From contig NC_057719.1 in the NCBI RefSeq assembly GCF_004010195.1, forward strand, positions 31,997,982 through 32,049,899: DNA of 51,918 bases, read 5' to 3'. The translations under genes were made by a program, and so were the position numbers. Below the pieces are notes generated by a model. The model saw only the letters and a list, made by a program, of their open reading frames with translations, made no database searches and was not told the origin of the DNA. Positions 5,348-51,691 of the stretch are shown one piece after another; the stretch's first letter is position 1; each line of letters starts with the position of its first letter. Source of the stretch: Chiloscyllium plagiosum. Taxonomy: Eukaryota.

Positions 5348-7382
5348 TGCCTTATCAGGTATAGTCTTCATCCAAGAAATTGAGCCAAAGAATCGAACCA
5401 CGGTAATGCACTGGCCAACAGTTCACAATGGCTTAGCCAGATTCTACAAGAACATATGAGAGACCAAAGTGACACACCATCCGCCCATATTGCTCCAGTG
5501 TTGGCCACATCAAAGGCCCAGTGGTGTAACCATGAAAATGTATTTTGAACATGGGAATCATTTTATCATTTTGAGTGCCCAGGATCAAGGATATTACCAA
5601 ACTCCGGGAAGTGGATTATGGTCAGTCTTGCAGATCTTGCTGAAACAAGGCAGGATATTGCAGTACATCAAACAGGGAACTGTGCACAGGTCAGTCAGTG
5701 GTGTGGTCAGTCATCTGTCAGGGCTGTCCCTTCAAATTGGTCAGAGGTGGCCACATTCAGTTCCTGGGGGTCAACTTAATGGCAGTCAAATAGAACTTAG
5801 GGAAATCAATGGTGGGAATTGGAGGCACCATGCTAGGATGCAGAGGGGAGAATCATTAAGAGGGTGCAATTGAAGATAAAAGGGGGGATATATGATAACA
5901 CATAGGAGTACATGGATTACGGGGGAAGGGGAAAGGTGTAATCAACATTCACAGCCACCCTGGCTTCTACTCAGCATAGCCTGGTGGCATGGTCTCCTCT
6001 GCTGGTCCTGAGGGATCCAGAAGCACTGCATTTCAACACTCTATCCACCAAGATAGAGCAACATGGAGCCAACTTACCTTTGTACAACACCTCCAAAGTT
6101 ATGCATAGGAACGTACCAGGCAGCTCTGAACTAACAGAACTTGACTTAATGCAGGATTGCATGTTAAAAATGGTGTGGGAATCAAGGGAGGCCAAGGCTG
6201 TAGTGAGCACCTCACCTCTGATGAGAAGGAAGAGAGGATGACCCAGGTGTAATAGAGGGACAACGCATAGCTAATGAGGTGAGCTTCAGAGAAATCTCAC
6301 TCGGGCTGATGGACAGAAATCCTCCATGAAACTCATCAGAATGTGCCTCAGTAAAAAGTCTTCAATTTGACTGATTAAAGAGACATGCTGTGGCATGTTC
6401 TGTCCTGTCCACATAAGTATTAAACAGTTAAAGCCCATAGAAAAATTTAAGCATAACAAGAAAAATGAGTGCCAGCCATTTGCCACTGACAATAAATTTG
6501 GTGTCTGTGTAAACCCTGTCTCTCTAGATTAGCAAATACTTGTTTAAACAGTTTCTCTTATTTCTTATATGTTTCACCATTTATCTCATTGACGTGCCAA
6601 ACAGAGGTCCAGATCTCCCAATACGAAAATAATTGCTGATCGGAATGGTACGTCTCGACCATGAAGAATTCCCGATGCAACAGACTTTGTGGTAATTTCC
6701 AGGGAAATTGAAACTAAGGATGGACAATTACTCTGCATCAGTAACCCTTCAAAAAATCGCCAACTCTGTGTTAGGGACTTTACAGGGTTCCGACCTACGC
6801 ACTTCAACAGTTAGTTGGGAAAAGTTAGAGGAATTAGAACTCCTCGATAACTATAAATTTGATTTAAAACTCACCCCAAATCACCATTTACCCGACTGAT
6901 GATTTCTTCACACCCCCACATCCTGATATCCCACTGACACCCTATTTCACTCCCTCCAAACCTGACTGTGATATTTGTGCCTCGTAGGATCATGCCATGA
7001 ATCCTCTCTTCATGACTGTGTCTAAGGCCCTAAGCAGCTTACAATGGAGAGGATTGAGTGAGTCTTAACAAGCTGTTATCTTTACAAGTAGCAGCTTATC
7101 GCATGATAGTAATTAGGCACAAGTTACATTAACAAGACAGACATTGTTACAAAGACTGTGAGGAGGTCTCTCAATATATGTCTTCACTTTACAAGGTCCT
7201 AATGTGTTCTACCTTACCCCACCCAAAGTTGTATGACATCATCAGATTGGGTGGAGCAAAATGCAGTCTCCAACATTAACCCTTTCAGAATGATTACCAA
7301 GCACCTCCCCATCCCTAAGCGCCCTCCACACCATCACTCACCTGAACTCTGAATTCCTAGGGACTCCTCAGACTCATCAGAC

Positions 7383-8495
7383 TGTTAAAGAAGGGCGGTA
7401 AGGACAAGCCAGGGAACTATAGACCGGTGAGCCTGACCTCAGTGTTGGGCAAGTTGTTGGAGGGAATCCTGAGGGACAGGATGTACATGTATTTGGAAAG
7501 GCAAGGACTGATTAGGGATAGTCAACCTGGCTTTGTGCGTGGGAAATCATGTCTCACAAACTTGCTTGAGCTTTTTAAAGAAGTAACAAAGAAGATTGAT
7601 GAGGGCAGAGCAGTAGATGTGATCTATATGGACTTCAGTAAGGCGTTCGACAAGGTTCCCCATGGGAGACTGATTAGCAAGGTTAGATCTCATGGAATAC
7701 AGGAAGAACTAGCCATTTGGATAAAGAACTGGCTCAAAGGTAGAAGATAGAGGTGGTGGTGAAGGGTTGTTTTTCAGACTGGAGGCCTGTGACCANNNNN
7801 NNNNNNNNNNNNNNNNNNNNNNNNNNNNNNNNNNNNNNNNNNNNNNNNNNNNNNNNNNNNNNNNNNNNNNNNNNNNNNNNNNNNNNNNNNNNNNNNNNNN
7901 NNNNNNNNNNNNNNNNNNNNNNNNNNNNNNNNNNNNNNNNNNNNNNNNNNNNNNNNNNNNNNNNNNNNNNNNNNNNNNNNNNNNNNNNNNNNNNNNNNNN
8001 NNNNNNNNNNNNNNNNNNNNNNNNNNNNNNNNNNNNNNNNNNNNNNNNNATTTGAGCTATGGGGAGAGGCTGAACAGGCTGGGGCTGTTTTCCCTGGAGG
8101 GTTGGAGGCTGAGGTGTGACCTTATAGAGGTTTACAAAATTATGAGGGGTATGGATAGGATAAATAGACAACGTTTTTTCCCTGGTGTCGGGGAGTCCAG
8201 AACTAGAGGGTATAGGTTTAGGGTACGAGGGGAAAGATATAAAAGAGACCTAAGGGGTAACTTTATCACGCAAACAGTGGTACGTGTATGGAATGAGCTG
8301 CCAGAGGATGTGGTGGAGGCTGGTACAATTGCAACATTTAAGAGGCATTTGGATGGGTGTATGAATAGGAAGGGTTTGGAGGGATATGGGCCAGGTACTG
8401 GCAGGCGGGACTAGATTGGGTTGAGATATCTGGTCAGCATGGACAGGTTGGACCTAAGGGTCTGTTTCCATGCTGTACATCTCTATGACTCTATC
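7383..8495 (+). mobile_element. 5'-truncated CR1 LINE (RT to 3' tail), contains an N-gap
   Basis: It encodes NYRPVSLTSVLGKLLE...QPGFVRGKSCLTNL...DFSKAFDKVPH and RVWNELPE...FKRHLD, and ends in the tail ctctatgactctat. Confidence 0.95.
7796..8049. other. Assembly gap (N run)
   Basis: Ns. Confidence 1.
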
Positions 8496-10660: not shown

Positions 10661-10928
10661 TTCGGAGATGCCGGTGTTGGACTGGGGTGTACAAAGTTCA
10701 GGTGATTGTGGAGGGCTCGATCGTAACACAGAATTTATAGCAAAAATTTGCAGTGTGATGTAACTGAAATTATACATTGAAGAATTGATTGTCTGTCAAG
10801 CCTTTCATCTATTAGAATACAGTGATAATTTCACTTCTTTCATGTGTAAATCACAAAACCCTTTTTTTTAAAGTTACATTCTCGGGTTAGCTGTTAACAA
10901 TGGTGATAGCTAGACAATATGTTGAAGG
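10658..10928 (-). mobile_element. Probable Penelope-like 3' fragment inserted in the SINE tail with a 13-bp TSD
   Basis: The direct repeat tgtagggaatcta lies at 10645-10657 and 10929-10941. The family call comes from resemblance to a remembered shark Penelope-like end (cggagatgccggtgttggactggggtgtacaaag). Confidence 0.5.
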
Positions 10929-11093
10929 TGTAGGGAATCTAAGCGGTGTTGAAGAAGAACATTCACTTCTTTCATGTGTAAATCACAAAACCCTTTTTTT
11001 TAAAGTTACATTCTCGGGTTAGCTGTTAACAATGGTGATAGCTGGACAATATGTTGAAGGTGTAGGGAATCTAAGCGGTGTTGAAGAAGAACA
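10830..11093. repeat. 132-bp tandem duplication
   Basis: 10830-10961 and 10962-11093 are identical except for one substitution (gctagac/gctggac). Confidence 0.95.
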
Positions 11094-13408: not shown

Positions 13409-16400
13409 CAAAGAACAAAGAGCAAAGAAAATTTGCTCTTCGGCCCTCCAAGCCTGAGCCGATCCAAATCCACTGTCTAAACTTATTGCCCAATTCCTAA
13501 GCACCTGTATCCCTCTGCTCCCCACCTACTCCTGCATTTGTCTAGACGCACCTTAAATGAATCTTCCATGCCTGCCTCTACCACCTCTGCTGGCAACGCG
13601 TTCCAGGAACCTACCACCCTCTGTGTAAAGTACTTGCCGTGTATATTCCCTTTAAACTTTTCACCTCTTACCTTGGAAAGCGTGACCTCTCATTACTGTA
13701 TCCCTCACACTGGGAAAAAGCTTATCTCTATCTACCTTGTCTATACCCTTCATGAGTTTGTAGACCTCAATCAGGTCCCCCCTCCATCTCCTTTTTTCTA
13801 ATGAAAACAATTCTAACCTACTCAACCTCTTCATAGTTAGCACCTTCCATACCAGGCAACATCCTCGTAAACCTTCTCTGCACCTTCTCCAAAACGTCCA
13901 CATCCTTTTGGTAATGTGGCGACTAGAACTGTACACAGTATTCTAAATGCAGCCAAAACAATGTCTTGTACAGTTTTAACATGACCTGTCTGCTCTTATA
14001 CTTAATACCCCGTCTGATGAAGGCAAGCATATCATATGTCTTCTTGACAACTCTATCCACCTGTACAACCACCTTCAAGGTACAATGGACCTGAACTCCC
14101 AGATCTCTCTGCTCATTAACTTTACCCAAGGCTTTTCTGTTTACAGTATAGCTGGCTCTGGAATTAGACTTCCTAAAATGGATCACCTCACATTTGTCTG
14201 GATTGAACTCCATCTGCTATTTCTCTGCCCAACTCTTCAGTCTATCTATTTTCTTCTGTATTCTTTGACAGTCCCCTATGCTTTCTGCTATTCCAGCAAT
14301 TTTCGTGTCATCGGCAGACTTACTAATCTGACCAACAATACCTTCATACAGATTATTATATCACAAACAACAGTGGCCTCAGCACTGATCTCTGTAGAAT
14401 ACCATTGGTCAGCTTTTTCCATTTCGAGAAACTCCTCTCAACTACTACTCTCTGCCTCCTGTTGCTCAACCAGTTCTTTATCCACCTAGCTAGAACACCC
14501 TGCACACCACGCGACTTCACTTTCTCCATTAGTTTACCATGGGGAACCTTATCAAACACCTTACTAAAGTCCATGTATATGACATCTGCAGCCCTTCCTT
14601 CATCTATCAACTTGGTCACTTCCTCAAAGAACTCTATTAAGTTGGTCAGGCATGATCTACCCTGCACAAAACCATGTTGCCTGTCACTGATAAGCCCATT
14701 CTTTTCCAAATATAAATCAATTTTATCACTCAGTACCTTCTCCAGAAACTTTCCCACCACTGAAGTCAGGTTCACTGGTCTGTAGTTACTTGGAATATCC
14801 CTACCAACTTTCTTGAACAGGGAGACAGCATGAGCAACCCTCCAGTCCTCTGGCACCTCAGCTATGTTTAAGGATGCTACAAAGATATCTGTAAGGGCTC
14901 CATCTATTTCCTCTCTCACTTTCCTCCGCAACCTGGGGTAGATCCCATCCGCTCCTGGGGATTTGTCCACTTTAATATCCTTTAGCCTACCCAACACATC
15001 TTCCCTCCTTATGTCAATGTGATCCAGACTAAACAAACTTCTATTTCTAATCTCAGCGTTCATCACCTCCTGTTCCTCAGTGAACACTGATGCAAAGTAA
15101 TCACTGAGAATCTCACCCATTTTCTCAGGTTCGACACACACACAACCTTTCTTCCTTATCCTTTAGTGAACCAACCCATTCTCTAGTTACCCTCTTGCTT
15201 TGTATATAAAAATAAAAGTCCTTGGGATTCTCCTTAATTCTGCTCGCTAAAGTTATTTCATGACCCCTTTTAGCCCGCTTGGTTCCTCGCTTAGGATGGG
15301 TCCTACTCTCCCGCTATTCTTCCAAGGCCTGTTTTGTTCTTAGCTGCCTGGACCTTATGCATGCTTCCTTTTTCCTTTTCGCTAGTTGCACGATTTCTCC
15401 TGTCACGAATATTGTCTTTCCTATCCCTTGTTTTCAAAGGGACATGCCTATCCTGCACTTTTTTCAACCTATCTTTGAAAGCCTCCCACATATCAAATGT
15501 GGACTTTCCTTCAAATAGCTGTGTCCAAGTCACATTTCCCACCTCCTGCTTAATTTTGATATAATTGGCCTTGCCCCAGTTAGTACTCTTCCCTTAGGAC
15601 CATTTTCATCTTTGTCTACGAGTATTCGAAAACTTACAGAATTGTGGTCACTATTCCCAAAGAAATCCCCCACTGCAACTTCTACCACCTGGCCTGGCTC
15701 ATTCCCCAATTCCAGGTCCAATATGGCCCCTTCCCTCGTTGGACTATTGACATACTGCTGTAGAAAAATTTCCTGAACGCTCCTTACAAATTTTGCCCCA
15801 TCCAGACCTTTGACACTAAGTGTATCCCAGTCAATGTTGGGAAAATTACCACCATCCTGTTGCCTCTACATCTTTCCATAATCTGTTTACCTATTTGTTC
15901 CTCTACCTCACGCTCATTGTTGGGAGGCATGTAATACAGCCCCAACAATGTAACTGCACCATTCTTAATTCTCATCATTCATAATGCCTCACTGCTCAAG
16001 CCCTTAATGGTGGCTTCCTTTAGCACAGCCGTGATATCATCCTCGACCATCAATGCAACTCCATCCCCCCCTTTTACTTCCCTCCCTATCCTGTCTGAAG
16101 CATCTATATCCTGGAACATTCAGTTGCCAATCATGCCCTTCCTTCAACCAAGTCTCTGTGATCACAATAACGTCATACTCCCAGGCACCAATCCAAGCCC
16201 TAAGTTAATCTGCCTTACCCACTGTACTCCTTGCATTAAAGTATATGCACTTCAGGCTGCCAGTTCTTTTGCGTTCATCTGTTCTCTGCCTGCTCTTCCC
16301 CTTGGTAATGCTAACTTCATGATCCATACAGTCTAGTTTCCACCTCACTGTCTACTAGTCTTCTCTTCTGGTTCCCAGCCCACTGCCACATTAGTTTAAA

Positions 16401-17597
16401 ACCTCCCAATAGCAGTAGCAAAAACTCCCCCAAGGACATTAGTTCCAGTCTGGTTCAGGTGTAGACCATCCAATTTGTAATAGTCCCACCTTCCGCAGAA
16501 CTGGTCACAATGTCCCAGAAATCTGAACTCCTCCCTCCTACACCATCCCTCAAGTCATGTCTTCGTCCTGCCTATTCTTTCATTTCTGCCCTGGCTAGCA
16601 CGTGGTACTAGTAGCAATCCGAGATCACTGCCTTTGAGGTCCTCCTCTTTAACTTTCTCCTAGCTCCCTAAATTCTGCTTTCAGGACCTCATCTCGTTTT
16701 TTACTTATATCATTGGTGCCTATATGTACCAAGACAACTGGCTGTTCACCCTCCCCTTTCAGAAAGCTCTGCAGCCGATCGGTGACATCCCTGACCCGAG
16801 CATCTAAGAGTCTGTTGTTCGTCCACAGAACTGCCTATCTACTCCCCTCACAATAGAATCCCCAATGACTATGGCCCTATGAATCTTTTTCCCGCCCTTC
16901 TGGACAGCAGTGCCCGCCACAGTGCCATGATCTTGACAACTGCTGCCCTCCCCTGGTGAGCTATCTCCCCCAACAGTATCCAAAACAGTATACCTGTTTT
17001 GGAGGGAGATGACTGCAGGGGACATCTGCTCTGCCATCCTGCTCTTTCTCTGCCTTTTTGTCACCCATTCTCTGTCTCCCTCAGCAATTCTAATCTACGA
17101 TGTGCCAAGTTCACTAAAAGTGCTATCCACGATCTCCTCAGCATCGCGGATGCTCTACAGTGAGTCCATCCGCAGCTCCAGAGCCGTCATGCAGTCAAAC
17201 ACGAGCTGCAGCTGGACACACTTCTTGCAAGTGTAAGAGTCAGGAACGTCAGACACATTTCTAAGCTCCCACGTCAAGCAAGAGGCACATACCACAGGTC
17301 TGAGGTCCCATGCCATTGCAAATCTTAGCTTTATATCAACTAACTAAAACCAAACAATGCCCTTAAATATATAAAGAAAAGAAAGAAAAAAGTAATAAAA
17401 GCCTTGCCTTACAGAGTGCTTTTTCTTCTGGTTAGAGGAAGGTAGGCAGAAGGGGGAGTACTACATGTGTTGTACCTCGGGTTTAGCTACTGTCCAAATT
17501 TATACTAAGTTCTTACCTTCCCGGCAACCTCCTTGTCTCCAACGTCACCTCCGCTCTGTCTCCCGCTGCTCCTGTCCAGGAGCAGCGGGAGACACCT
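13409..17597 (-). mobile_element. Near-full-length decayed CR1 LINE (5'UTR, ORF1 zinc finger/coiled coil + SGNH esterase, ORF2 APE-RT, tail)
   Basis: ORF1 starts at ~17315 and contains CKKCVQLQL...LELRMDSL, GDSIVRG (~16860), HIGTND (~16715) and DGLHLN (~16460). ORF2 contains YYMPPN, SDHNS, QHGFVQGRSCLTNL and DFSKVFDKVPH. The 3' tail is a (gttcttt)-type repeat. Many stops and frameshifts. Confidence 0.95.
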
Positions 17598-20346: not shown

Positions 20347-20711
20347 ATACTAAACAAGAATCAAAGGGTAAACAAGTACTGTTAGGGCATTTTCTGTAAA
20401 TAGGGACCCTGTCTTAATGTAATGTAGCAGTTTCATAAAGAAAAGAGTGGGTCAGTGTAAGAAGGACCATAGGAGCAGGAGATAAAAAAAAACAACTGTC
20501 ACTTAACCTGTTTCTACCTGTTAGAGGCAAAGTGTGACAATATAGGAATAGAGGTAGGTGATCAGTGAGTATTTCATCAGTGTCTTTTTTTTTGATTGGC
20601 CAAGTGATTTAATCAGGAAACGTCATTGCAGTTAATGAGTACAAATAAGAAATTCACTTTTAAAATATTTAACTCCCCAGTGAATTAATTAATAGAATAG
20701 AGAAGGCTGGG

Positions 20712-21277
20712 GGTTAAGGGAAAGAAAAAAATAATAACCAGGGGACTTAGAATCCAAAAAAATATATAGAACCAGAAGATTCAGCACCTCTTCAATTTAG
20801 GGCACTGACTCTGTGCTGGCTGGGCCACAGTCAGTGTGTTCCTGCTGATACTCTGTGTTTTGAGATTAGATTAGATTCCCTACAGTATGGAAACAGGCCT
20901 TTCAGCCCAAGTCCACGCCAACCCTCCGAAGAGTAACCCACCCAGACCCTTTCCCCTAACCTATATTTGCATCTGACACGATGGGCAATTGAATATGGCT
21001 AATTCACCTGACCTTAACATCTTTGGATTGTGGGAGGAAACCCACACAGACACAGGGAGAATGTGCAAACTTCACACAAACAGTCATCCGACAGAGGAAA
21101 TGAAGCCGGGCCCCCTGGTGTTGTGAGGCAGCAGTGCTAACCACTGAGCCATTGTGCCACCTATTTTGGCAGAGGAGAGTTTCTTTTTCTTTAACCCCAC
21201 CCCTACCTTTTTCCGGGGAGGATGTTTGTTCATTTTGGTTTTCTTTATTGTTTTCTGTGTGTAAAAAAAGGAAAAAA
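20712..21277 (+). mobile_element. TSD-flanked retroposed composite (Tx1 tail + LTR downstream half), with HE1 inside
   Basis: A 13-bp direct repeat agagaaggctggg lies at 20699-20711 and 21278-21290. The 3' end is A-rich, and the insert begins ggttaa+A-tract+ataaccagg. Confidence 0.65.
20863..21161 (-). mobile_element. HE1-type V-SINE
   Basis: The minus strand has head ggtggcacaatggctcagtggttagcactgctgcctcac, the V core and an (aatct)n tail. Confidence 0.92.
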
Positions 21278-21334: not shown

Positions 21335-22380
21335 TGCAAGGTTCGATACTGGGTCCACTGCTTTTTGTCATTGATATAAATGATTGGGTTGTGAATACAG
21401 GAGGAATGGTTAGTAATTTTGCAGATGACATCAGAATCGGTAGTGTAGCAGACAATGCAGAAGATCTATCTCCGATCTTAATCCGATGGGCTGAGGAGTG
21501 GCAGATGGAAATTAGATAAATATGAAGTGTTGCTTTTTTTTTATTCATTTGCGGGATGAGGGCATCACTGGCTAGGCCAGCATGCATTGCCCATACCTAA
21601 TTGTTCAGAGGGCAGTTAAATTCAGTAGGGCAAATCAGCGCAGTACTTATACATTTAATGGTAAGGTACTGGGGAGTGTTGCTGAACAAAGAGACTTTGG
21701 TTTCAGGTTTACAGCACCTTGAAGATCAAGTCGTAGGAATACAGGGTGGTGAAGAAGGTATTTGGTACACTTGCCTTTATTGGTTAGTGCATTGAATATA
21801 GGAGTTGGGAGGTCATGTTGCAGGATGTTGGTTAGATGATATTTGGAATAACACATTCAATTCTAGTTTTCTTGCTATAGGAAGGATGTTGTTAAACTTG
21901 AGAGGATGCAGAAAAGATTTACAAGGGGTTGGAGGTTTGGAGCTCTCGGGAGAGGCTGAATAGGCTGCGGCTGTTTTTCCTGGAGCATTGGAGGTTGAGG
22001 GGTGACCTTGTAGAGGTTTATAAAATAATGAGGGGCATGGATAGGGTGAATTACTATGGTCTTTTTCTTAGGGTGGGGGAGTCCAAAACTAGAGGGCAAA
22101 GGTTTAAGGTGAGAAGGGAAAGATTTAAAAGGGATCTAAGGGGCAACCTTTTCATGCAGAGGTTGGTGAGTGTATGGAATGAGCTGCCAGAGGAAGTGCT
22201 GGAGGCTGGTACAATTGTAATGTTTGAAAGGCATCTGGATGGGTACATGAATAGGAATGGTTTAAAGGGCCAAATGCTGGCAAATGGGACTAGATTAATT
22301 TATGATATCTGGTATCTGGTTGGCATGGATGAGTTGCACTAAAGGATCTGTTTTCATGCTGTACAACTCAAAGACTCTAG
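21335..22380 (+). mobile_element. 5'-truncated CR1 LINE
   Basis: QGSILGPLLFVIDIND...FADD...WQME; RLRGDLVEVYKIM; VWNELPEE; CR1 tail. Confidence 0.93.
21534..21620 (-). mobile_element. 5'-truncated copy of the second SINE (3' tail + poly-A) inserted in CR1
   Basis: The minus strand reads ttaactgccctctgaacaattaggtatgggcaatgcatgctggcctagccagtgatgccc...aataaaaaaaaa and splits CR1 gtgttgc|att. Confidence 0.8.
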
Positions 22381-25777: not shown

Positions 25778-28700
25778 TGGAGAGGGGCCAGCAAGAGGTC
25801 ATTGCCCACATTGGAACCAACGATATAGGAAGGGAAAAGGTTGAGATTTTGAAGGGAGATTACAGAGAGTTAGGCAGAAATTTAAAAAGGAGGTCCTCAA
25901 GGGTAGTAATATCTGGATTACTCCCAGTGCTATGAGCTAGTGAGGGCAGGAATAGGAGGATAGAGCAGATGAATGCATGGCTGAGGAGCTGGTGTATGGA
26001 ATAAGGATTCACATTTTTGGATCATTGGAATCTCTTTTGGGGTAGAAGTGACTTGTACAAGAAGGACAGATTGCACCTAAATTGGAAGGGGATTAATATA
26101 CTGGCAGGGAAATTTGCAAGAACTGCTTGGGAGGATTTAAACTCGTAAGGTGGGGGGGAGGCGGTGGGACCCAGGGAGATAGTGAGGAAAGAGATCAATC
26201 TGAGACTGGTGCAGTTGAGAACAGAAGTGACTCAAACAGTCAGGGCAGGCAGGGACAAGGTAGGACTAATAAATTAAACTGTATTTACTTCTATGCAAGG
26301 GGCCTAACAGGGAAGGCAGATGAACTCAGGGCATGGTTAGGAACATGGGACTGGGATATCATAGCAATTACAGAAACCGGGCAGGACTGGCAGCTTAATG
26401 TTTCAGGATAAAAATGCCACAGGAAGGATAGAAAGGGAGGCAAGAGAGGAGGGGGAGTGGCATTTTTGATAAGGGTTAGCATTACAGCTGTGCTGAGGGA
26501 GGATATTCCCGGAAATACATCCAGGGAAGTTATTTGGGTGGAACTGAGAAATAAGAAAGGGATGATCACCTTATTGAGACCCCCTAATAGTCAGAGGGAA
26601 ATTGAGACACAAACTTGTAAGGAGATCTCAGTTATCTGTAAGAATAATAGGGTAGTTATGGTAGGGAATTTTAACTTTCCAAACATCAACTGGGATAGTG
26701 TTAAGGGTTTAGATGGAGAGGAATTTCGTCAGTGCGTACAAGACATTTTTCTGATTCAATATGTGGATGTACCTACTAGAGAAGGTGCAAAGCTTGACCT
26801 ACTCTTGGGAAATAAGGCAGGGTAGGTGTTTGAAGTGTCAGTGGGGGAGCACTTTGGGGCCAGCGATCATAATTCTATTCGTTTTAAACTTGTGATGGAA
26901 AAAGATAGACCAGATCTAAAAGTTGAAATTCTAAATTGGAGAAAGGCCAATTTTGACGGTATTAGGCAAGAACTTTTGAAAGCTGATTGGAGACAGATGT
27001 TCGCAGGTATAGGGACGGCTGGAAAATGGGAAGCCTTCAGAAATGAGATAACAAGAATCCAGAGAAAGTATATACCTGTCAGGGTTAAAGGGAAGGCTGG
27101 TAGGTATAGAGAATACTGGATGATTAAAGAAATTGAGGGTTTGGTTAAGAAAAAGAAGGAAGCATATGTCAGGTATAGACAGGATAGATTGAGTGAATTC
27201 TTAGAGTATAAAGGAAGTAGGAGTATACCTAAGAGGGAAATCAGGAGGGCAAAAAGGGGACATGAGATAGCTTTGGCAAATAGAATTAAGGAGAATCCAA
27301 AGGGCTTTTACAAATATATTAAGGACAAAAGGGTAACTAGGGAGAGAATGGGGCCCCTCAAAGATCAGCAAGGAGGCCTTTGTGTGGAGCCACAGAAAAT
27401 GGGGAGATGCTAACTGAATATTTTGCATCAGTATTTACTGTGGAAAAGGATATGGAAGATATAGACTGTGGGGAAATAGATGGTGACATCTTGCAAAATG
27501 TCCAGATTACAGAGGAGGAAGTGCTGGATGTCTTGAAACGGTTAAAGGTGGATCAATCCCTGGGACCTGATCAGGTGTACCTTAGAACTCTGTGGGAAAC
27601 TAGAGAAGTGATTGCTGGGCCTCTTGCTGAGATACTTGTATCATCGATAGTCACAGGTGAGGTGCTGGAAGACTGGAAGTTGGCAAACGTGGTGCCACTG
27701 TTTAAGAAGGGTGGTAAGGGCAAGCCAGGGAACTATAGACCAATGAGCCTGACCTCAGTGGTGGGCAAGTTGTTGGANNNNNNNNNNNNNNNNNNNNNNN
27801 NNNNNNNNNNNNNNNNNNNNNNNNNNNNNNNNNNNNNNNNNNNNNNNNNNNNNNNNNNNNNNNNNNNNNNNNNNNNGGTGCTGGGCCCTCTACTTTTTGT
27901 CATTTACATAAATGTTTTGGATACGATCATAAGAGGTACAGTTAGTAAGTTTGCAGATGACACCAAAATTGGAGGTGTGGTGGACAATGAAGAAGGTTTC
28001 CTCAGATTACAACAGGATCTGGACCAGATGGGCCAATGGGCTGAGAAGTGGCAGATGGAGTTTAATTCAGATAAATGTGAGGTGCTGCATTTTGGGAAAG
28101 CAAATCTTAGCAGGACTTATACACTTAATGGTAAGGTCCTAGGGAGTGTTGCTGAACAAAGAGACCTTGGAGTGCAGGTTCATAGCTCCTTGAAAGTGGA
28201 GTCACAGGTAGATAGGATAGTGAAGAAGGTCAGAGTATTGAAGCAGGGGTTGGGAGGTCATGTTGCAGCTGTCCAGGACATTGGTTAGGCCACTGTTGGA
28301 ATATTGCATGCAATTCTGGTCTCCTTCCTATTGGAAAGATGTTATGAAACTTGAAAGGGTTCAGAAAAGATTTACAAGAGTTTTGTCAGGGTTGGAGGAT
28401 TTGAGCTATAGGGAGAGGCTGACCAGGCTGGAGCTGTTTTCCCTGGAGCGTTGGAGGCTGAGGGGTGACCTTATAGAGGTTTACAAAATTGAGGGGCATG
28501 GATAGGATAAATAGACAAAGTCTTTTCCATGAGGTCGGGGAGTCCAGAACTAGAGGGCATAGGTTTAGTGTGAGTGGGGAAAGATATAAAAGAGACCTAA
28601 GGGGCAACTTTATTATGCAGAGGGTGGTACGTGTATGGAATGAGCTGCCAGAGGAAGTGGTGGAGGCTGGTACAATTGCAACATTTAAGAGGCATTTGGA

Positions 28701-28848
28701 TGGGTATATGTGTAGGAAGGGTTTGGAGGGATATGGGCCGGGTGCTGGCAGGTGGGACTAGATTGGGTTGGGATATCTGGTCGGCATGGTCAGGTTGGAC
28801 TGAAGGGTCTGTTTCCATGCTGTACATCTCTATGACTCTATGACTCTA
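25778..28848 (+). mobile_element. CR1 LINE truncated within the ORF1 esterase; ORF2 APE-RT decayed; contains an N-gap
   Basis: HIGTND, DRLHLN; CIYFYARGL...AITET; GNFNFP; SDHNS; FADDTK; tail (ctatgact)n. Confidence 0.96.
27778..27876. other. Assembly gap (N run)
   Basis: Ns. Confidence 1.
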
Positions 28849-29089
28849 AATCAAAAGAGATAGTGCTCAAACTGCTCATTTAACAGGCATTACACTATGA
28901 AAACGATAGGCTGGGAAATCTGTCATGGAGCAGTTTGACTGTTTTCAGTACTTCAAGTGGTAGGACTGCATCACAAAATATGTCGTCCTCAGTACGACTG
29001 AGGTGCCTAGCATTGACTGCATTCTTTTCTAACACTAGATGAAATGGATAGCATATGAGTTGTGCATGAAGGATTTCAGAATGCTAAAA

Positions 29090-29285
29090 CTTAGCAGGAC
29101 TTATACACTTAATGGTAAGGTCCTAGGGAGTGTTGCTGAACAAAGAGACCTTGGAGTGCAGGTTCATAGCTCCTTGAAAGTGGAGTCACAGGTAGATAGG
29201 ATAGTGAAGAAGGTCAGAGTATTGAAGCAGGGGTTGGGAGGTCATGTTGCAGCTGTCCAGGACATTGGTTAGGCCACTGTTGGAA
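29090..29285 (+). repeat. 196-bp local duplicate of CR1 segment 28106-28301
   Basis: Identical by eye, including the same internal deletion (gtgaagaagg|tcagagtatt). Confidence 0.93.
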
Positions 29286-30335
29286 CCTGCAAACTTAAAA
29301 ACTGTCCCTTATAGAACACAGTGCTCCAGAAATTAAGTTAAGGTGCCCCTCACAAATATTTCAAGGACCAGTTGAAAAAGCAGCTCTTTTGGACTCCTCG
29401 TGATTGAGACCAGGTGAACTTCATTGACTACGAAGTTCTTGATTGGAGTTGTTAATGTGGGCCAATCGGGAAAGCTGACCAATATAACCAGGAGAGTGGA
29501 GTCCATTATTTCTCCTTCCAACTCTATTTTGATTTAGTCCCTACCCTCCCCTTCACTGTTTTGATCACACAGCATTGCCCTTTGATGTGAAGGGCAGTGT
29601 TTGTCACTGGCCACCCGGGCGTTTTCCTATCTTCCTGGTGGTGGAATTTGAATAAAGATTCATGCACTTTGTGTCTCTCACTGTGTCTCACACCTACATC
29701 CACACATCATTGGTGCTGGGGATAAAATAAGCACTACCGCACTTAGGTGGTAGTGTGGGGTTAAATATGAAAAAAAGAAAAGAAAAAAAATATAACCAGG
29801 AGAGTGGAGTGCATTACTTCTCCCTCCAACTCTATTTTGATTTAGTCCCTATCCTCCCCTTCACTGTTTTGATCACACAGCATTGCCCTTTGATGTGAAG
29901 GGCAGTGTTTGTCACTGGCCACCCGGGTGTTTTCCTATCTTCCTGGTGGTGGAATTTGAATAAAGATTCGTGCACCTTGTGTCTTTCACTGTGTCTCACA
30001 CCTGCACACACACACACCATGGGTGCTGGGGAAAAAAAAATAAGCACTACCGCACTTAGGTGGTAGTGTGGGGATTAAAATAGAAAAGTTAAAAAAAAAT
30101 AAATAAATAAAAAAATAAATTAAAAAAAATAAACACAGTCTAGCTGTCCCTTGATGTGAAGGGCAGTGTTTGTCACTGGCCACCCGGGTGTTTTCCTATA
30201 TTCCTGGTGGTGGAAATTGAATAAAGATTCGTGCACTTTGTGTCTTTCACTGTGTCTCACACCTACACACACACACCATGGGTGCTGGGGAAAAAATAAG
30301 CACTACCACCTAATTGCGGTAGTGCTTATTTTTTC

Positions 30336-30341
30336 NNNNNN
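30336..30341. other. Assembly gap (short N run)
   Basis: Ns. Confidence 1.
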
Positions 30342-30786
30342 TGTCTCACACCTGCACACACACCATGGGTGCTGGGGAAAAAATAAGCACTACCGCGGTT
30401 AGGCGGTAGTGTGGGGGTTAATAGAAATAAAAAAAAAGAAAAAAGAAAATAAAAGAAAAAAAAGAACAGGAGTTCACACAACATTGTCCTTTGATGAGAA
30501 GGGCACTGCTTGTCACTGGCCACTCGGGTGTTTGCCTATCTTAAAAAAAATATAACCAGGAGAGTGGAGTGCATTACTTCCCCCTTTTGTGAAGGGCACT
30601 GCTTGTCACTGGCCACTCGGGTGTTTTCCTATCTTCCTGGTGGTGGAAATTGAATAAAGATTCATGCACCTTGTGTCTCTCACTGTATCTCACACCTGCA
30701 CGCACACACCATGGGTGCTGGAGAAAAAATAAACACTACCGCAGTTAGGCGGTAGTGTGGGGGTTAAATTTAAAAAGAGAAAAAAG

Positions 30787-30903
30787 ATGGGGATCCAAGA
30801 TGGCGGCGACCCAGTAAGACTGAGTCAATGTTTATATCTGAGAGTTTTGTTTATTTTTGTAAACTTGTAAAAATGTTAAATTTCTAATAAAAATATCTAT
30901 AAA
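30787..30903 (+). mobile_element. Tiny bipartite L1-like retroposon (5' end + 3' end) in an A-tail
   Basis: It starts ggggatCCAAGATGGCGGCG (YY1-type L1 5' motif) and ends AATAAA...poly-A. It is flanked by aaaaagagaaaaaa at 30772-30785 and 30904-30917. Confidence 0.6.
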
Positions 30904-31589
30904 AAAAAGAGAAAAAAAAGAAGAAAAAAAAAATATAACCAGGAGAGTGGAGTGCTTTACTTCCCACTCCAACTCAATTTTGATTTAATCCCTGCCCTCC
31001 CCTTCACTGTTTGATCACACAGCATTGCCTTTTCCTCCTGGTGGTGGAAATTGAATAAAGATTCGTACACCCTATGTCTCTCACCTGCACACACACAACA
31101 TGGGTGCTGGGGAAAAAATAAGCACTACCGCAATTAGGCGATAGTGTGGGGGAAAAAAAAAGGAAAAATCTAGGGTGCTGTGGAAAAAAAAATATAACCA
31201 GGAGAGTGGAGTGCATTACTTCCCCCTCCAACTCTATTTTGATTTAATCCCTGCCCTCCCCTTCACTGTTTGATCACACAGCATTGCCCTTTGATGTGAA
31301 GGGCACTGCTTGTCACTGGCCACTCGGGTGTTTCCTTTCTTCCTGGTGGTGGAAATTTGAATAAAGATTCGTGCACCTTGTGTCTCTCACTGAGTCTCAC
31401 GCCTACACACACAACAAAAAATAACCAGGAGATTAGAACTTCCTCAGTTGAAGACTGACATTGAGTTGTTTGGCCACATCCAGTACACTGTGCATTAGTA
31501 AATAAAGGGTGATTTGGTGCTGGGACCCAGCCTCTGTGCAGTTATTTCAGTCGTGATGGGAGAAAACAGAACATGCCTGAGGAAGATTC

Positions 31590-35689: not shown

Positions 35690-38600
35690 TTATAGAACTT
35701 AGAAAAGTACAGCACAGAACAGGCCCTTAGGCCCACAATGTTGTGCCGCAACTTAATCCTAATGTAATATATAGTAATTTAACCTACGCACCCCTCAACT
35801 CACTGCTATCCATGTGCATGTCCAGCAGTTACTTAAATGTCCCCAATGACTTCACTTCCACCACCTCAACTGGCAACGCATTCCATGCATTCACAACTCT
35901 CTGCATAAAGAACCTACCTCTGATGTCTCCTTTATACCTTCCTCCTAAACTATGACTTCTAGTACCAGTCAATCCTGCCCTGAGTAAAAGTCTCTGGCTA
36001 TTGACTCTATCTATTCCTCTCATTATTTTGTACACCTCGATCAGGTCTCCTCTCTTCCTCCTTCTCTCCAGAGAGAAAAGTCCAAGCTTTTCAACCTTTC
36101 TTCATAAAGCAAGCCCTCCAGTCCAGGCAGCATCCTGGTAAACCTTCTTTGCACCCTCTACAAAGCTTCTGTATCTTTCCTATAGTAGGGTGACCAGAAC
36201 TGGCCACAATATTCCAAGTGTGGTCTCACCAGGGACTTGTAGAGCTGCAGCAAAACCTCGCGGCTCTTAAACTTGATATCCCTGTTAATGAAAGCCAAAA
36301 CACCATATGCTTTCTTAACAACCCTATCCATTTGGGTGGCAACTTTGAGGGATCTATGTACTTGCACACCCAGATCCCTCTGTTCCTCCACACTGCCAAG
36401 AATCCTGTCTTTAATCCTGTATTCAACATTCGGGTTCGACCTTCTTACTGCTTCCCATTTATCCAGGTTGAACTCCATCTGCCATTTCTCAGCCCAGCTC
36501 TGCATCCTGTCGATGTCGTGCTGCAGCCTGCAATATCCCTCTATACGATCGATGACACTTCCAACCTTTGTGTCATCTACAAATTTACTAACCCATCCTT
36601 CAACCTCTTCATCCAAGTCATTTATAAAAACTACAAAGAGCAGAGGTCCAAGAACAGAGACTGCGGGACCCCACTCAACACTGACCTCCAGGCAGAATAC
36701 TTTCCATCTACAGCCACTCTCTGCCTTCTGTCAGCCAGCCAATTCTAAATCCAGATAGCCAAATCTCCCTGTATCCCATACTTCCTGACTTTATGGATCA
36801 GCCTACCTTGGGGAACCCCATCAAATGCCTTGCTGAAGTCCATATACACCACATCTACTGCTTGACTGTCGTCAACCTGTCTTGACACCTCCTCAAAGAA
36901 CTCAATAAGATTTGTGAGGCATGACCTGCCCCTCATAAAGCCATGCTGACTGCATTTAATCACACTATGGTTTGCCAAATAGTCATAAATCCTATCCCTC
37001 AGAATTCTTTCCACAACTTTGCTGACCACAGACGTAAGAACTGACTGGTCTGTAATTGCCAAGGATTTCCCTATTACCCTTCTTGAAAAGTGGAACAACA
37101 TTCGCCTCCTTCCAATCCTCCGGTATGACCCCCGTGGAGGGTGAGGAGACAAATATCTTCTTCAGCGGCTTAGCTTTCTCACTTCCTGGAGCAGCCTAGG
37201 ATAGATCTGGTCTGGCCCTGGGGACTTATCAATCTTAATGTTTTCCAAAATTTCAATCACATCAGCTTCATCAATCTTGATCTGGTCAAGCCTGTATCCC
37301 AGCTCCTCTAAGTTTTCGTTTACAACAAGTTCCCTTTTCTTGGTGAAAACTGAAGCAAAACACTCATTTAGGGCTTCCCCTATCTGCTCAGACTCCACGC
37401 ACAAGTTCCCTCCACTATCCCTGTTTGGCCCTACCTTCTCCCTGATCATTCTCTTATTCCTCACGTATGAGTAAAACACCTTTGAGTTCTCCCTAATCCG
37501 TCTTGCCAAGCCTTTTTCGTGCCCCCTCCTGGCTCTCCTCAGTCCATTTCTGAGCTCCTTTATAGCGAGCCTGTAATCCGCTAAAGATGTGCTAGATCCT
37601 TGCTCCCTCCACCTTACTTTAGCTGCCTTCTTCCCTTTGATGAGAAGTTCCTCTGTTCTCGTCATCCAAGGTTCCTTAATCTTACCCCTTCTTACCTGCC
37701 TCAGAGGAACAAATTTGTGCATCACTCGCAACAACTGCTCCCTAAATAGTCTCCACATGTCTGCTGTCCCCTTTCTGTGGAACAATTCCTCCCAGTCTGT
37801 ACTTCCCAACTCCTCGTCAGCCTGTCTACATACTGAGAAAGGAAACCCTCCTGAACACACCTGACAAAAATGGCTCCATCCAAACCATCTGCATTTAGGA
37901 GGTTCCAGTCAATATCGGGAAAGTTGAAATCACCCACAACAACAACCCTGCTACTTTTGCATTTTTCCAGAATCTGCCCGTCTCTGAGTTCTTCAATCTC
38001 TCTACTGCTATTAGGTGGTCTGTAGAAAACCCCCAATGTGGTGGCTGTTCCCTTGCTGTTCCTAACTTCCACCCATACTGACTCAGTAGACAAACCTTCC
38101 TCAACAACCTTTGTTTCTATAGCTGTGATGCACTCTCTAATTAGCAATGCTACACCCCTCCTCTTTTTCTACCCTCCCTATTCTTTTTAAACGTTCTAAA
38201 TCCTGGAACATCAAGCAACCATTCCTGCCCCTGTGAAACCCACATCTCTGTTATGGCCACAACATCGTAGCCCCAAGTACTGATCCACACGTTCAGTTTG
38301 TCACTCTTATTCCGGACACTCCTTGCATTAAAGCAAACACACTTTAACCGATCCCTATGTTTCATTGTGTGAGAAACCTTCCTGATAGATTCAATATATT
38401 TCATTGTGTGAGAAACCTTCCTGATAGATTCAATATATCCTGTAATTGTCCCGTCTGCAACTGACCCCCTCTCAGACATGTGGCTCTGATTCCCACCCCC
38501 TGCCAAACTAGTTGAAACCCTCCCGAATTGCATGAGCAAATCTCCCACCCAGGACATTTGTCCTCGTTCTTCATGTACAGGACTACCTTCCCCAGAAGGT

Positions 38601-39625
38601 ATCCCAATGGTCTAGGTATCTGAAGCCCTCCCTCCTGCACCAGCCTCACAGCCACGTGTTAAACTGCATTCGCTGACTGTTCCCCATCTCACTATCTTGT
38701 GGCACCGGTAGCAAACCTGAGATCACTACTCTACTCGTCCTGCTCTTCAGCTTCCAACCTAACTCTCTGTAGTCACTTTTCATATCCTCAATCCCTTTCC
38801 TGTCTATATCATTGGTGCCAATATGTACCATAATTTCTGGCTGCTCACCCTTCCCCTTCAGAATCTTGTAAACCCGATCGGTGACATCCTGGACCCTGGC
38901 ACCAGGGAGACAACATACCTTCCGGGAGTCCCCTTCCTGACCACAAAACCTCCTGTCAATCCATCTAACTATTGAGTCCCCTACCACTAGCGCTATTCTA
39001 TTTCCCCCCCACTTCCTTCTGAGCCACAGTGCCAGGCTCAGTGCCAGAGACCTGACAACGATGGCTTACCCCTTGTAGGCTGTCCCCACCAGCCCTATCC
39101 AAACCGGTATACTTGTTGCTGAGGGAAACAGCCACAGGGGATCCCTGCTCTGACTGTCAGTTCCCTTTCCTCCCCCTGACAGTAACCCAGCTGTCCTTAT
39201 TCTGTGTCTGGGGAGTGACCACCTACCTGTACATCCTTTCAATTTCCCCCTCAGCCTCCCGAATAATCTGTAGTTCATCCAGCTCCAGCTCCAGTTCCCT
39301 AACTCTGTTTTCAAGGAGCTGGAGCTGGGTGCACTTCCCACAGATATAGTTGGCAGAGACATGTGAAGTGTCTCTCATCTGCCACATTCTGCAGGAGGAA
39401 CATGCAACTGCCATAACATCCATATCCCACTACTCTGAAAGCCCGCACAGGACTAAACAAAGGAAGAGAAGAAAAAAAAGAAACCTGAAAACTTACCTCA
39501 GTTACAGACCCTTAGTAAGGTAGAGGAGGTGAGTGGGAGGGAGGCCCTATGTTGTAGGGTCTCTGGTTCACCCACTTAAAATCTTCCCAGAAGTCCTTCG
39601 CTTCTCCCTCACATCTCTCGGCAAA
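35690..39625 (-). mobile_element. Near-full-length decayed CR1 LINE (different subfamily), with an internal deletion near 37812
   Basis: ORF1 MDVMAVACSSCRMW...CGKCTQLQLLENRVRELELELDEL (39423), VGDSIVR...LPGARV...HIGTND. ORF2 CFNARS...AITE, FYRPPN, GDFNFP, QHGFMRGRSCLTNL, FVDDTK. 3' tail present. Confidence 0.96.
38360..38438. repeat. ~40-bp tandem duplication inside CR1
   Basis: tttcattgtgtgagaaaccttcctgatagattcaatata occurs twice. Confidence 0.92.
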
Positions 39626-48064: not shown

Positions 48065-48622
48065 CTTTGAACAAAAACAGAAAGTGCTGGAGAAACTTAA
48101 TAGGTCTGGTAGCATCTGTAGAGAGAGAAACAGAGTTAATGTCAAGGAGTCCAGTGACCCTTCATCTGAACCAAAAGTAACTGGGAAAGAGTGGCATTTA
48201 TTCTGATGATGGGATGGGGACCAGGAAATAGAGTCCATGGGGATGATTCCCAGAGAGAGAGTGAGAGAGAAATAGATAGGCAAACAAAAGGATTGCTGCT
48301 GATAAGCTGAGACAAGGAGATGAATGCTGGGTAGGGTGTTAATGAGAAGCAGAAATGGTTGGATATGGATAGATTGTGCTAGGAGCAACCCATACAAAAC
48401 AGGAGCTAGTGGTATGGGTTGAATGAGGGCTGGAAGGTGTGTCGGGGCAGACTGAGGGTTGGAAGATTTTTTCAGGGCACATCGAGAGTCGGTAGGGGCA
48501 TAGGGGTGGGCTGCCTTTGAGGGGCAGGAAGTGGGAGGGTCAGGCCTTTTGCTAGGTTACTAGGAGTGTCTGTGTAATGAATGCAGAGGAAGTCATTCAC
48601 ATTCTGAAGTTGTTAAACTCAA
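48065..48622 (-). mobile_element. Penelope-like 3' end with a 10-bp TSD
   Basis: TSD cccctaagaa at 48055-48064 and 48623-48632. The minus strand begins EFNNFR (compare EFSNFK), and the terminus is homologous to the 19.5-kb arm. Confidence 0.8.
48421..48578 (+). repeat. 158-bp dispersed duplicate of 49995-50152
   Basis: 154/158 identical by eye. Confidence 0.9.
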
Positions 48623-49175: not shown

Positions 49176-50890
49176 TGTTATGTCATTGCAGTGATTGGAA
49201 CCAACTGGATCTCACTGATTGAGATCCTTAATTGGGATTGGCCCAATTAGAGAGACTAGGCTGACCAATGTAACCAGGAGACACGACATGGTGCTGGGGA
49301 GAAATAAGCACTACACTGTGTGGCAGTGGGGAGAATTAAAAAAAAAACATGGGATGATTGGATGGACTGTCCTAGAGGTGGCCAGAAGATATTTCAGGGC
49401 AGACCAAGATGTAGAAGGTGTGTCAGGGCAGACTGAGGGCCGGAAGGGGCATGGGTGGACCGAGAGCCGGAAGGTGCATAGGGGCAGGCCGTCTTAGAGT
49501 GGCCGGAAGGTGGGAGGGACGGGGGGCTTGCTCAGTTTCTGGGGGTATTGTACGCACTGTTTTTATGTAACTGGACTGTCTTGTATGTATAAATGTCATT
49601 GTTACTGTTTGTAATGCTTGAAACTGGGATTTGAGGTTTGTCTTCATTTCCTTGAAAACTGGTTGAATGTTGAGGTTTGCGGCTTGGCTTTGCCATTCCT
49701 CTTCCTTTGAAAATTGCCGTATCTCTGTTTACAGCTATAAATGTTAATTATTTTGTAAACTGAATTGTTTAATAAAATATATAGCCAGGAGACACAACAT
49801 GGTGCTGGGGAGAAATAAGCGCTACTACTGGTTAGCAGTAGTGGGGAGGGGGGTGTGGTGGTGGGGAGAATTTTAAAAAAAAACAAGGGATGATTGGATG
49901 GACTCTCCTAGAGGTGGCCAGAAGATATGTCAGGGCAGACCAAGATCTAGAAGGTGTGTCAGGGCAGACTGAGGGCCAGAAGGGGCATGGGGCGGAATGA
50001 GGGCTGGAAGGTGTGTCGGGGCAGACTGAGGGTTGGAAGATTTTTTCAGGGCACATCGAGAGTCGGTAGGGGCATAGGGGCGGGCTGCCTTTGAGTGGCA
50101 GGAATTGGGAGGGTCAGGCCTTTTGCTAGTTTACTAGGAGTGTCTGTGTAATATGCGCTGTTTTATTGTTCAGAAGGTCAGACTGTTTTGTATGTGGGGT
50201 TTGTGTCTCCTGTTTCCTCTTTGGTTAGTTGAGGTGGAATTTGGGGTTCATCCACATTTCCCCAAGAAATGATTGTACAGTGGAGTTTGTGGTTTGGCCT
50301 TGCTCTCCCTTTCCCCTGTAAATAGCTGTTTCTAGTGAACTGCTGTTTATTGTTCACTGTTGACTGCATTTTGTACAGTTTGATAAAATTTAAAAATATA
50401 ACCAGGGATGCCTGGCCAAGCTGGTCATTAACAGGTCCAGTAGTGAGCTGTAAAGGGGACATTATGGCTGATTGCCTGCCCCTCTACCGTGGTTATGTTC
50501 AGGCCCAGGTGTCCCTGGAGACGCAGCAGGCAATGACTACCAATACTCACGATCTTCAGGAAGAGGAGGGCACCGCGGTGGCTGGAATGCTTTGATTTAG
50601 TCTCTACCCTCTCCTTCACTTTTCCTTTCACGCAAGCGTTGCCCAGCTGGGGATCTGCTTGTCACAGGTTCCTTGGCCACATGGGTGTTTTTCCTGGTGG
50701 TGCAATATTAATAAAGTTGTCTACACAACTGGTGCTTTTCATTGTGTCCTGCACCTACACACACATGATATGGGTGCTGGGGAATATAAACACTGCTGCT
50801 ATATGACAAAGAAAAAAAGAATAAACAGATGATCTAGAATCTCTAGTTCAGGGGACAGACTCTGAGCTGACTGGCCACAGTCAGTGTGTA
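49176..50890 (+). mobile_element. Second LTR-like copy split at the same motif by a three-unit Tx1-related array
   Basis: The upstream gctgaccaatgtaaccaggaga (49260-49281) matches 29474-29495. Unit junctions are at ~49271, ~49781 and ~50399. The downstream half resumes at 50820 (gactctgagctgactggccacagtcag). Confidence 0.65.
50408..50819 (+). mobile_element. Tx1-clade LINE ORF2 C-terminus + 3'UTR
   Basis: LAKLVINRS / ADCLPLYRGYVQAQVSLE...WLEC resembles Tx1 ORF2 ends. The 3'UTR is homologous to the array units (ttcctggtggtg...aataaag...tgggtgctgggg). Confidence 0.75.
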
Positions 50891-51691
50891 TTGTTGTTGT
50901 TTCTGTTTTTTGGTGGAAACCTAATTTCTGAACTCGTTGATCTACATGGCTGTTTGTTAACTGGTACTCCATTTTTATTGAGGACTGATTTCTGAACTGG
51001 TTGATCTACACAGTCAATGTGTTACAGGTGTATCTCAGTCCTCATTAGGGAACTGTTCTCTCACTGGCTGGTTACAGCCTGTGTGTTACTCTTTTCTTTT
51101 ACTTTGGGAAAAGGACAATGCCGATTTTATGGCAAGGCTTAGCCCTTGCACTCTGGTTTTCTTTCTTTTTTGCATGTGTTTTCACCCCTTTGGTGTTTAG
51201 ACTGAGCCCCTGTGAGATACTGCATCTTTCCAGATGAGCTGTTCCTGTGTGAGTAGGCCTGCCCTCTATGGGTGGACCAGGCCTCTGTAAAGACTGAACA
51301 CCTGCGTGTGTGTGTGTGTTGGGAGGTCAGCATTTGCTGCCTGTTGCAGTGGACTCTGCCTGTTGGAGTTGACCAAACCCCATGTGAGTTAATTATCTTT
51401 TATAATGAACTGTATTCGTGTGAGTGGGCCTGGTCCTCTGTAGATGGACCAAGACTAGGGAGACTGAAAACCTGTGGGGTGTGCATTTGCTGCCATCAGG
51501 ACTGGACTCTGCATATCAGAGTAGACTCTGCCTTTGGTTGTGGACTCTGTTTCTGGCAATAGACACTGCATACTAGAATGGACTCTCTTCCTGGGAATGA
51601 ATTCTGCATTCTGAAGACCCGGTGTACAGAAGTGAGTCTGTTTGTTGGTAATTGACTCTGTCTTGTTGCTTGTTGGGTTTATCACCTGCAC

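Follow-up and report, generated by a model that had tools for sequence, protein, structure and literature searches.

The question raised by this locus is why a series of similar LINE 3' ends lies head to tail inside a short LTR-like repeat, and whether these ends arrived by separate insertions into one target. The window analysed here is a stretch of 51,918 nucleotides of the Chiloscyllium plagiosum genome, in which the array takes up positions 29474-31549. We consider it likely that a high-copy LINE of the Tx1 clade inserts at a single point within a short dispersed repeat shaped like an LTR, regenerating its target and stacking there repeatedly. This reading is based on the array itself, a spacer that is not part of the element, the affinity of the element to Tx1, the other host copies that were hit and the presence of two allele sets. 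The locus, referred to as locus A below, is laid out as follows.

29401..29483, forward strand: left half of the LTR-like host, with a TG start and CCAAT words at 29462 and 29479
29482..29495, forward strand: first copy of the target motif in its 14-nt form (from motif scan and sequence)
29496..29789, forward strand: U1, with the last ORF2 codons, 3' UTR, terminal hairpins and A-rich tail; allele set 1
29790..30129, forward strand: motif copy 2 and U2, with the 5' junction of U1, allele set 1 and a different tail
30130..30335, forward strand: variant spacer and U3, with a deeper 5' truncation and a fold-back end at 30301-30335
30336..30341, no strand: assembly gap of 6 N
30342..30462, forward strand: U3b, a 3' end and tail, belonging to U3 or forming a unit by itself
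30463..30549, forward strand: variant spacer and U4, with its own 5' break and an early A-run end; allele set 2
30550..30786, forward strand: motif copy and U5, with the common junction and about 65 nt absent after the first 20; allele set 2
30787..30910, forward strand: short L1-like insertion within the U5 A tail, between the arms of an imperfect A-rich duplication
30933..31168, forward strand: motif copy and U6, with the common junction and two internal blocks absent; allele set 2
31169..31191, forward strand: tiny piece resembling the GGTGCTG word of the unit plus an A-run
31192..31420, forward strand: motif copy and U7, with the common junction and an early A-run end; allele set 2
31421..31432, forward strand: last motif copy in its 12-nt form
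31433..31549, forward strand: right half of the host, with AATAAA at 31501 and a TTTCA end

Alignment within the window places seven or eight Tx1 3' ends, all head to tail, in the interval 29496-31420. The preliminary description had spoken of about eight; the array itself stands, and the count is seven or eight owing to the gap and the fold-back that split U3 from U3b. The six spacers whose positions it had quoted are exact copies of ATAACCAGGAG (29484, 29792, 30552, 30935, 31194 and 31421), and the two variant spacers that it had put at about 30129 and 30465 were found at 30130 and 30463. With one mismatch or fewer, ATAACCAGGAG has 9 matches in the window versus 1.14 expected, the maximum in shuffled sequences being 4. 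The repeated target is 14 nt long at five sites and 12 nt long at the last one. The five units said to share a truncation point do so (U1, U2, U5, U6 and U7), with the junction CAGGAGA/GTGGAG, and U3 and U4 combine the variant spacers with deeper 5' breaks. Four of the units are not complete 3' ends, since U4 and U7 end early inside an A-run and U5 and U6 are devoid of internal blocks.

Because the 6-N gap is directly preceded by a fold-back of 35 nt, the middle of the array is assembled unreliably; the fold-back is probably an assembly artefact, and U3 and U3b may be one unit. The left junction is present in read data, as a single contig of run X15 covers 29304-29542 with 1 difference, X15 being a top holder and possibly the sample behind the assembly itself. 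The 124-nt segment at 30787-30910 is not Tx1. It has a CAAGATGGCG head and a T-rich end bearing AATAAA, is surrounded by an imperfect, A-rich duplication following TTT/AAAA, and has no further copy in the window; it looks as if the 5' end of an L1 had been joined to an L1 3' end. The piece at 31169-31191 is possibly a further minimal insertion. Early ends in poly(A) runs, at the equivalents of 29574-29692, are common among contig joints, as in U4 and U7, and those lying 30-55 nt past an AATAAA of the 3' UTR, at about 29651, could be due to that word.

Some other repeats of the window were recorded alongside. A CR1-like piece of 200 nt occurs twice (28102-28301 and 29086-29285), with 99.5% identity, 984 nt apart and near an N gap; it was probably either duplicated by the assembly or copied very recently. 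Positions 10830-11093 consist of two 132-nt tandem copies with 99% identity, possibly a scaffolding overlap. Decayed fragments of reverse transcriptase and endonuclease, presumably CR1/L2-like judging by their motifs, lie on both strands at 1-900, 7361-8494, 13571-17033, 21349-22379, 25789-28846 and 35857-39374.

For the identity of the unit, positions 29290-29830 were compared with the reads or contigs of one raw-read run and three contig sets, covering three organisms. The unit belongs to a dispersed family, with a depth of about 6380 in 1934 million letters, which corresponds to 8,000-15,000 copies for an assumed genome size of 2.5-4.5 Gb. At 29494, 2458 reads of run X22 extend upstream into ORF2 sequence (agreement 0.92), and a loose end at the same position is also seen in runs X15, X5 and X11. 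The upstream extension of the X22 reads translates, by eye, as LFRERWAPQG, in frame with VECITSPSNSILI and its stop; from 31206 onward, the window encodes the same VECITSPSNSILI and stop, matching the end of protein P0005. By its sequence, the unit is therefore the ORF2 C-terminus plus 3' UTR of a high-copy LINE. Because most reads crossing 29494 run on into ORF2, the spacer is target and not the terminus of the element, so that the description of the spacer as regenerated target, rather than as the element's own end, is borne out.

The assignment of this LINE to a clade came from a chain of C-terminal homologies. A longer relative in the window (50405-50794) is 70% identical to the unit and has kept an ORF2 remnant of about 190 nt (50405-50594). 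A first protein search with this remnant as query gave no match among 33 candidates. Later, three of its four matches (P0001, P0002 and P0004) were dropped as repetitive proteins, P0003 of the whale shark being the sole credible relative, with 65% identity over 34 aa. P0003 in turn matches P0005 at an E value of 1.2e-21. P0005, which served as a proxy, has 622 aa and the C-terminal end RARWAPQGLEVVIDPFNHLLV, and its matches to RVT_1 and zf-RVT are weak, below the curated cut-offs. The best of its four matches, and its best named relative, is the Xenopus Tx1 ORF2 (Tx1L, YTX2_XENLA, P0009), with 41% identity over 99% of the length and an E value of 1.5e-138. Its match to human L1 ORF2p is far weaker (E about 1e-6), which supports a Tx1 affinity of the family, via C-terminal fragments of 34 aa and about 24 aa. 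The Tx1 assignment of the preliminary description is thus upheld by the chain from window to P0003, P0005 and Xenopus Tx1 ORF2. The APE-type endonuclease domain PF03372 was seen in the relatives P0009 and P0010, while the window shows neither an RT nor an endonuclease of the family itself. An atlas search with P0003 gave no usable match, and one with P0005 returned RT/zf-RVT clusters in which the clade level is not resolved. There were no related loci of P0005 in metagenome or prokaryote contigs, and viral and metagenome contigs gave no match in a pattern scan with the unit. As an aside, the first 500 or so aa of P0012, a stingray protein annotated as VWA7-like, are a Tx1-like ORF2, and P0012 is probably a gene model that fuses a LINE to a gene.

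The copies also look like those of Tx1-type elements in being 5'-truncated, in having an A-rich tail and in being associated with a target site duplication. Two adjacent hairpins can form before the tail (29709-29760 and equivalents, 49287-49337 and 49798-49848), and in 7 of 8 ends the terminal hairpins fold better than shuffled sequences, with z values of -2.6 to -3.5. At the second host copy described below, the second hairpin is retained although its stem is made of other letters, a hint that the 3' end may be recognised by its structure.

With the array removed, the host is a repeat of 212 nt, running from TG at 29401 to CA at 31549. Its left half is dispersed and begins at about 29400, the read depth being 0 up to 29384 and 18-45 over 29404-29479. 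The immediate flanks, CTCG on the left and GTCG on the right, match in three of four bases. TG...CA ends, CCAAT and TATA-like words, an AATAAA and dispersal give the host the shape of an LTR. No gag or pol Pfam domains were found in 64 ORFs of at least 38 aa near the three candidate sites (64 of the 90 listed ORFs were scanned), and such an absence is to be expected of a solo LTR. A scan of viral contigs for the host pattern was empty. An LTR is the likeliest label for the host, going by sequence features, and the target motif, TATA-like by its shape, may be a promoter element. Targets of the Keno or Dewa type, i.e. snRNA, tRNA or rRNA genes, were considered and set aside, as the window has no Rfam match at the gathering score and no tRNA.

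Two further places in the window were compared with this host.

49191..50892, forward strand: second host copy (locus B), split at the insertion point of the array (anchored alignment)
20627..20862, forward strand: possible third host copy (locus C), in which a minimal insert resembling a tail precedes the motif at 20734

Locus B has motif variants at 49270, 49781, 50398 and 50821 and three inserts between them, of which one is an older Tx1 end and the other two are composite units extended far at the 3' side. The left halves of the two hosts (29401-29483 and 49191-49269) are homologous when anchored at the motif, as none of 2000 random segments of the window scores as high. The same holds for the right halves (31433-31549 and 50826-50895), likewise anchored, with 2 of 2000 random segments as high; unanchored local alignment of the right halves scored 35 against a shuffle maximum of 41. 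AATAAA is absent downstream of the last motif of locus B. The composite units (49270-50397) consist of a 60-nt Tx1 3' end with hairpins, an A-run and 440-520 nt of G-rich/T-rich sequence ending near AATAAA-like words, and may represent a Tx1 subfamily with a long 3' extension gained by read-through. At locus C, the right side scores 83 against locus B (shuffle maximum 33) and the left side is equalled by 7 of 2000 random segments; the anchored comparison of its right half to locus A gave no support, with 701 of 2000 random segments scoring as high. As a host copy, locus C is possible on these alignments, though weaker than locus B.

The contigs extend this pattern past the window. Unit-to-unit joints were ranked by support, with the tail at 29764-29830 outside the count, and among the best 12 of 62, from three organisms, the unit is immediately preceded by the motif or one of its variants in 10 and lacks it in 2. 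Among the 9 listed joints with an A-run between two units, 8 have the motif. The listed motif-led joints resume at many different 5' breaks, and other contigs join the left half of the host plus motif to the unit at 29534, 29580, 29623 and 29630 (among the 15 listed of 45 such joints). In organisms B and C, the contigs that span the unique left flank stop at 29492 and 29488, respectively. Independent insertions of the same position and orientation are therefore found in separate target copies, at loci A and B and in the joints, and the proposal of a sequence-specific insertion holds beyond this locus. The spacers elsewhere vary, with forms such as TAAACAGGAG, TAAGCAGGAG and TAAAACAGGGG. At 48396-48578, the motif variant AAAACAGGAG is followed by 158 nt that are 97.5% identical to 49995-50152, with no tail, and the flank of this variant gave no alignment to the host. 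At 80% likeness, the unit is about 140 times deeper than the left half of the host (about 6380 versus 45), so that this host variant cannot hold most of the copies; the host family must be much bigger and more diverged than this variant suggests, or else many units are located at other sites.

Whether the array stems from one insertion or many was assessed from the differences between the units. U1-U3 and U4-U7 fall into two allele sets at 29537, 29543, 29597, 29600 and 29615 (where covered), and at these five sites 31-49% of all reads have the second allele. Since local descent would not recreate allele sets that exist genome-wide, the units are not one duplicated insertion, and the locus-specific clade that would have spoken for plain tandem duplication was not what we found. 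In addition, tails and 3' ends differ between the units of the array. U1 and U2, which are adjacent and 95% alike, possibly go back to one local duplication. They differ at 13 places, of which U1 alone accounts for 10 and U2 alone for 1-3, a lopsidedness with a p of 0.039 for 10 of 12 (0.01-0.09 over the range, calculated by hand), which fits better with insertions of unequal age than with a single duplication. The variant spacers at 30130 and 30463 resemble the form TAAACAGGAG common elsewhere more than the motif of this locus, and U2-U4 may have been brought in jointly by a read-through transcript of another array.

The 5' break shared by five units is specific to this locus. The preliminary description had named microhomology with the target as a possible cause. 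Such microhomology is present, the element reading CAGG and then GAGTGG and the target CAGGAGA, yet it does not suffice for five identical breaks because the junction is uncommon elsewhere: it occurs in 1 of the 10 motif joints among the best 12 of 62. By depth over 29480-29493, 0 to about 50 of about 3000 reads could carry it, a rough estimate that may miss junctions bearing the commoner motif variant. At a rate of 0.1, the chance of five in seven is near 2 in 10,000, as calculated by hand. At locus B, two neighbours likewise share one 5' break, there CAC, unlike the GTGGAG of locus A; these neighbours have 81% likeness over 246 nt and are less similar beyond that, in the downstream direction.

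Under the likely reading of repeated insertion, the endonuclease would nick just before the TATA-like word, at a site of the type ATAA[A/C]CAGGAG, the element would be inserted by target-primed reverse transcription, and the second cut would fall 12-16 nt downstream; we infer the enzyme and both cut positions by analogy with R1 and Tx1. Each event would leave a fresh copy of the word on either side of the insertion, in front of the element and after its poly(A) tail. Any such copy could be hit again, and 5'-truncated tails would pile up head to tail, accruing over time and from more than one source subfamily. The spacers in the listed joints reach 1-5 nt past CAGG(A/G)G. At a filled site, the second cut would then leave a primer ending in element sequence, and this end would pair with the incoming cDNA in the existing register. 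That a second cut 1-5 nt past CAGGAG left such an element-derived primer, with pairing in the same register, is our tentative explanation of the five-unit break, and we see not quite an even chance for it. Templating by the neighbour over a longer stretch could also account for the gaps of U5 and U6. U7 has 3 private changes in 210 nt and looks young for a founder, although templating requires U7 to be the oldest. Alternatively, the common break may stem from a local duplication followed by gene conversion, or from array transcripts that were inserted anew. The more general idea that arrays inherit their 5' break from the neighbour, later cDNAs of unrelated source subfamilies being joined in register, with a fixed junction per array at a TATA-like LTR word used by at least two Tx1 subfamilies, is conceivable and at present doubtful.

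Other accounts of the array as a whole have to be weighed against targeted, repeated insertion. The family might favour a short A-rich word plus CAGG anywhere, the host being merely one carrier of such a hot spot; arrays would form alike, and to say that the element targets an LTR promoter would be an overstatement. The 140-fold excess in depth, the variability of the spacers elsewhere and the variant at 48396, where a 97% copy of part of a locus B unit lies beside a flank unaligned to the host, are what one would expect from a hot spot. We nevertheless regard this as unlikely, as both well-supported arrays of the window sit at one point of homologous hosts and contigs join the left half of the host and the motif to units at several breaks. 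Moreover, the 80% cut-off for reads misses most host copies, the hosts of loci A and B aligning only with gaps and many mismatches.

Still less probable, in our view, is that one or two insertions were multiplied at the DNA level, by slippage or unequal crossing-over between the motifs and with later gene conversion. The five identical junctions, uncommon elsewhere, would follow readily from such a process, as would the 308-nt tandem formed by U1 and U2 at 91% and the common junction of two neighbours at locus B, and Stage and Eickbush report amplified unique events among tandem-like R1 copies (PMC2718515). However, multiplication in place is at odds with the two genome-wide allele sets, with the differences in tails, 3' ends and internal gaps, with the lopsided divergence of U1 and U2 and with the varied breaks of other arrays, and the locus B neighbours are just 81% alike over their 246 nt. 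It is hardly credible that unit and spacer together form a non-autonomous element or satellite monomer with the motif as its own end. Five units do start at the same base behind the same 14-nt lead, but reads that cross 29494 mostly enter ORF2 and not the motif, the depth over 29480-29493 hardly exceeds that of the host, and host sequence flanks the motif on both sides.

Several published systems resemble targeted, repeated insertion as described here. Tx1 is known as a target-specific clade (PMC4640811, PMC3747384, PMC5753468), and Tx1L of Xenopus laevis inserts into the transposon Tx1D (PMC4494074), a non-autonomous piggyBac element, whereas the present target is an LTR-like repeat. The crocodilian families Tx1-8_Crp and Tx1-4_AMi prefer specific groups of LTR retrotransposons (PMC4494074). 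They are like the present family in being Tx1 elements and, if the host repeat is an LTR, in preferring LTR elements, and differ in host lineage; their site within the LTR element is absent from the main text of that paper and possibly given in its supplementary S3/S4. The same work calls a family target-specific when one sequence type makes up more than 20% of its flanks, and reads tandem SINEU-3 copies that sandwich a TSD as sequential insertions (PMC4494074). SINEU-3 and Tx1-Mar in Mariner-N4_AMi share with our case the hit on fixed regions of a transposon and the tandem copies around a TSD. In contrast, their target is a DNA transposon and the units are SINEs, as opposed to truncated LINE tails stacked 7-8 deep. 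R1 arrays in Drosophila 28S rDNA have a 14-bp TSD spacing that reflects insertion into a regenerated target, and their 5' junctions show 1-5 nt of microhomology (PMC2718515). They resemble the present array in TSD-spaced copies and a regenerated target and differ in the R1 clade and the rDNA target. In the parts of PMC2718515 available to us, no statement was found on neighbours sharing a truncation point via templating. A shark Tx1 target or a TATA-directed Tx1 was not found in the literature covered, which holds little of the subscription journals and of Repbase Reports. The novelty that the preliminary description attached to an LTR-targeting, stacking Tx1 was overstated, as both LTR-preferring Tx1 elements and TSD-spaced tandems are in print (PMC4494074, PMC2718515).

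As principles, both the targeting of LTR elements by Tx1 and TSD-spaced stacking were known before. What is new is a case from a cartilaginous fish among the few vertebrate LINEs that aim at another mobile element, in which a very high copy number is combined with a short, definable target, giving a natural data set for the specificity of the APE endonuclease and for second-strand priming. Should the site prove to be a functional LTR promoter, the LINE would inactivate such promoters and at the same time gain safe places to land. The locus-specific 5' junction that is common to units of different subfamilies deserves further attention. If arrays do inherit their break from the neighbour, each array junction would be a record of second-strand priming on a target remodelled by the element.
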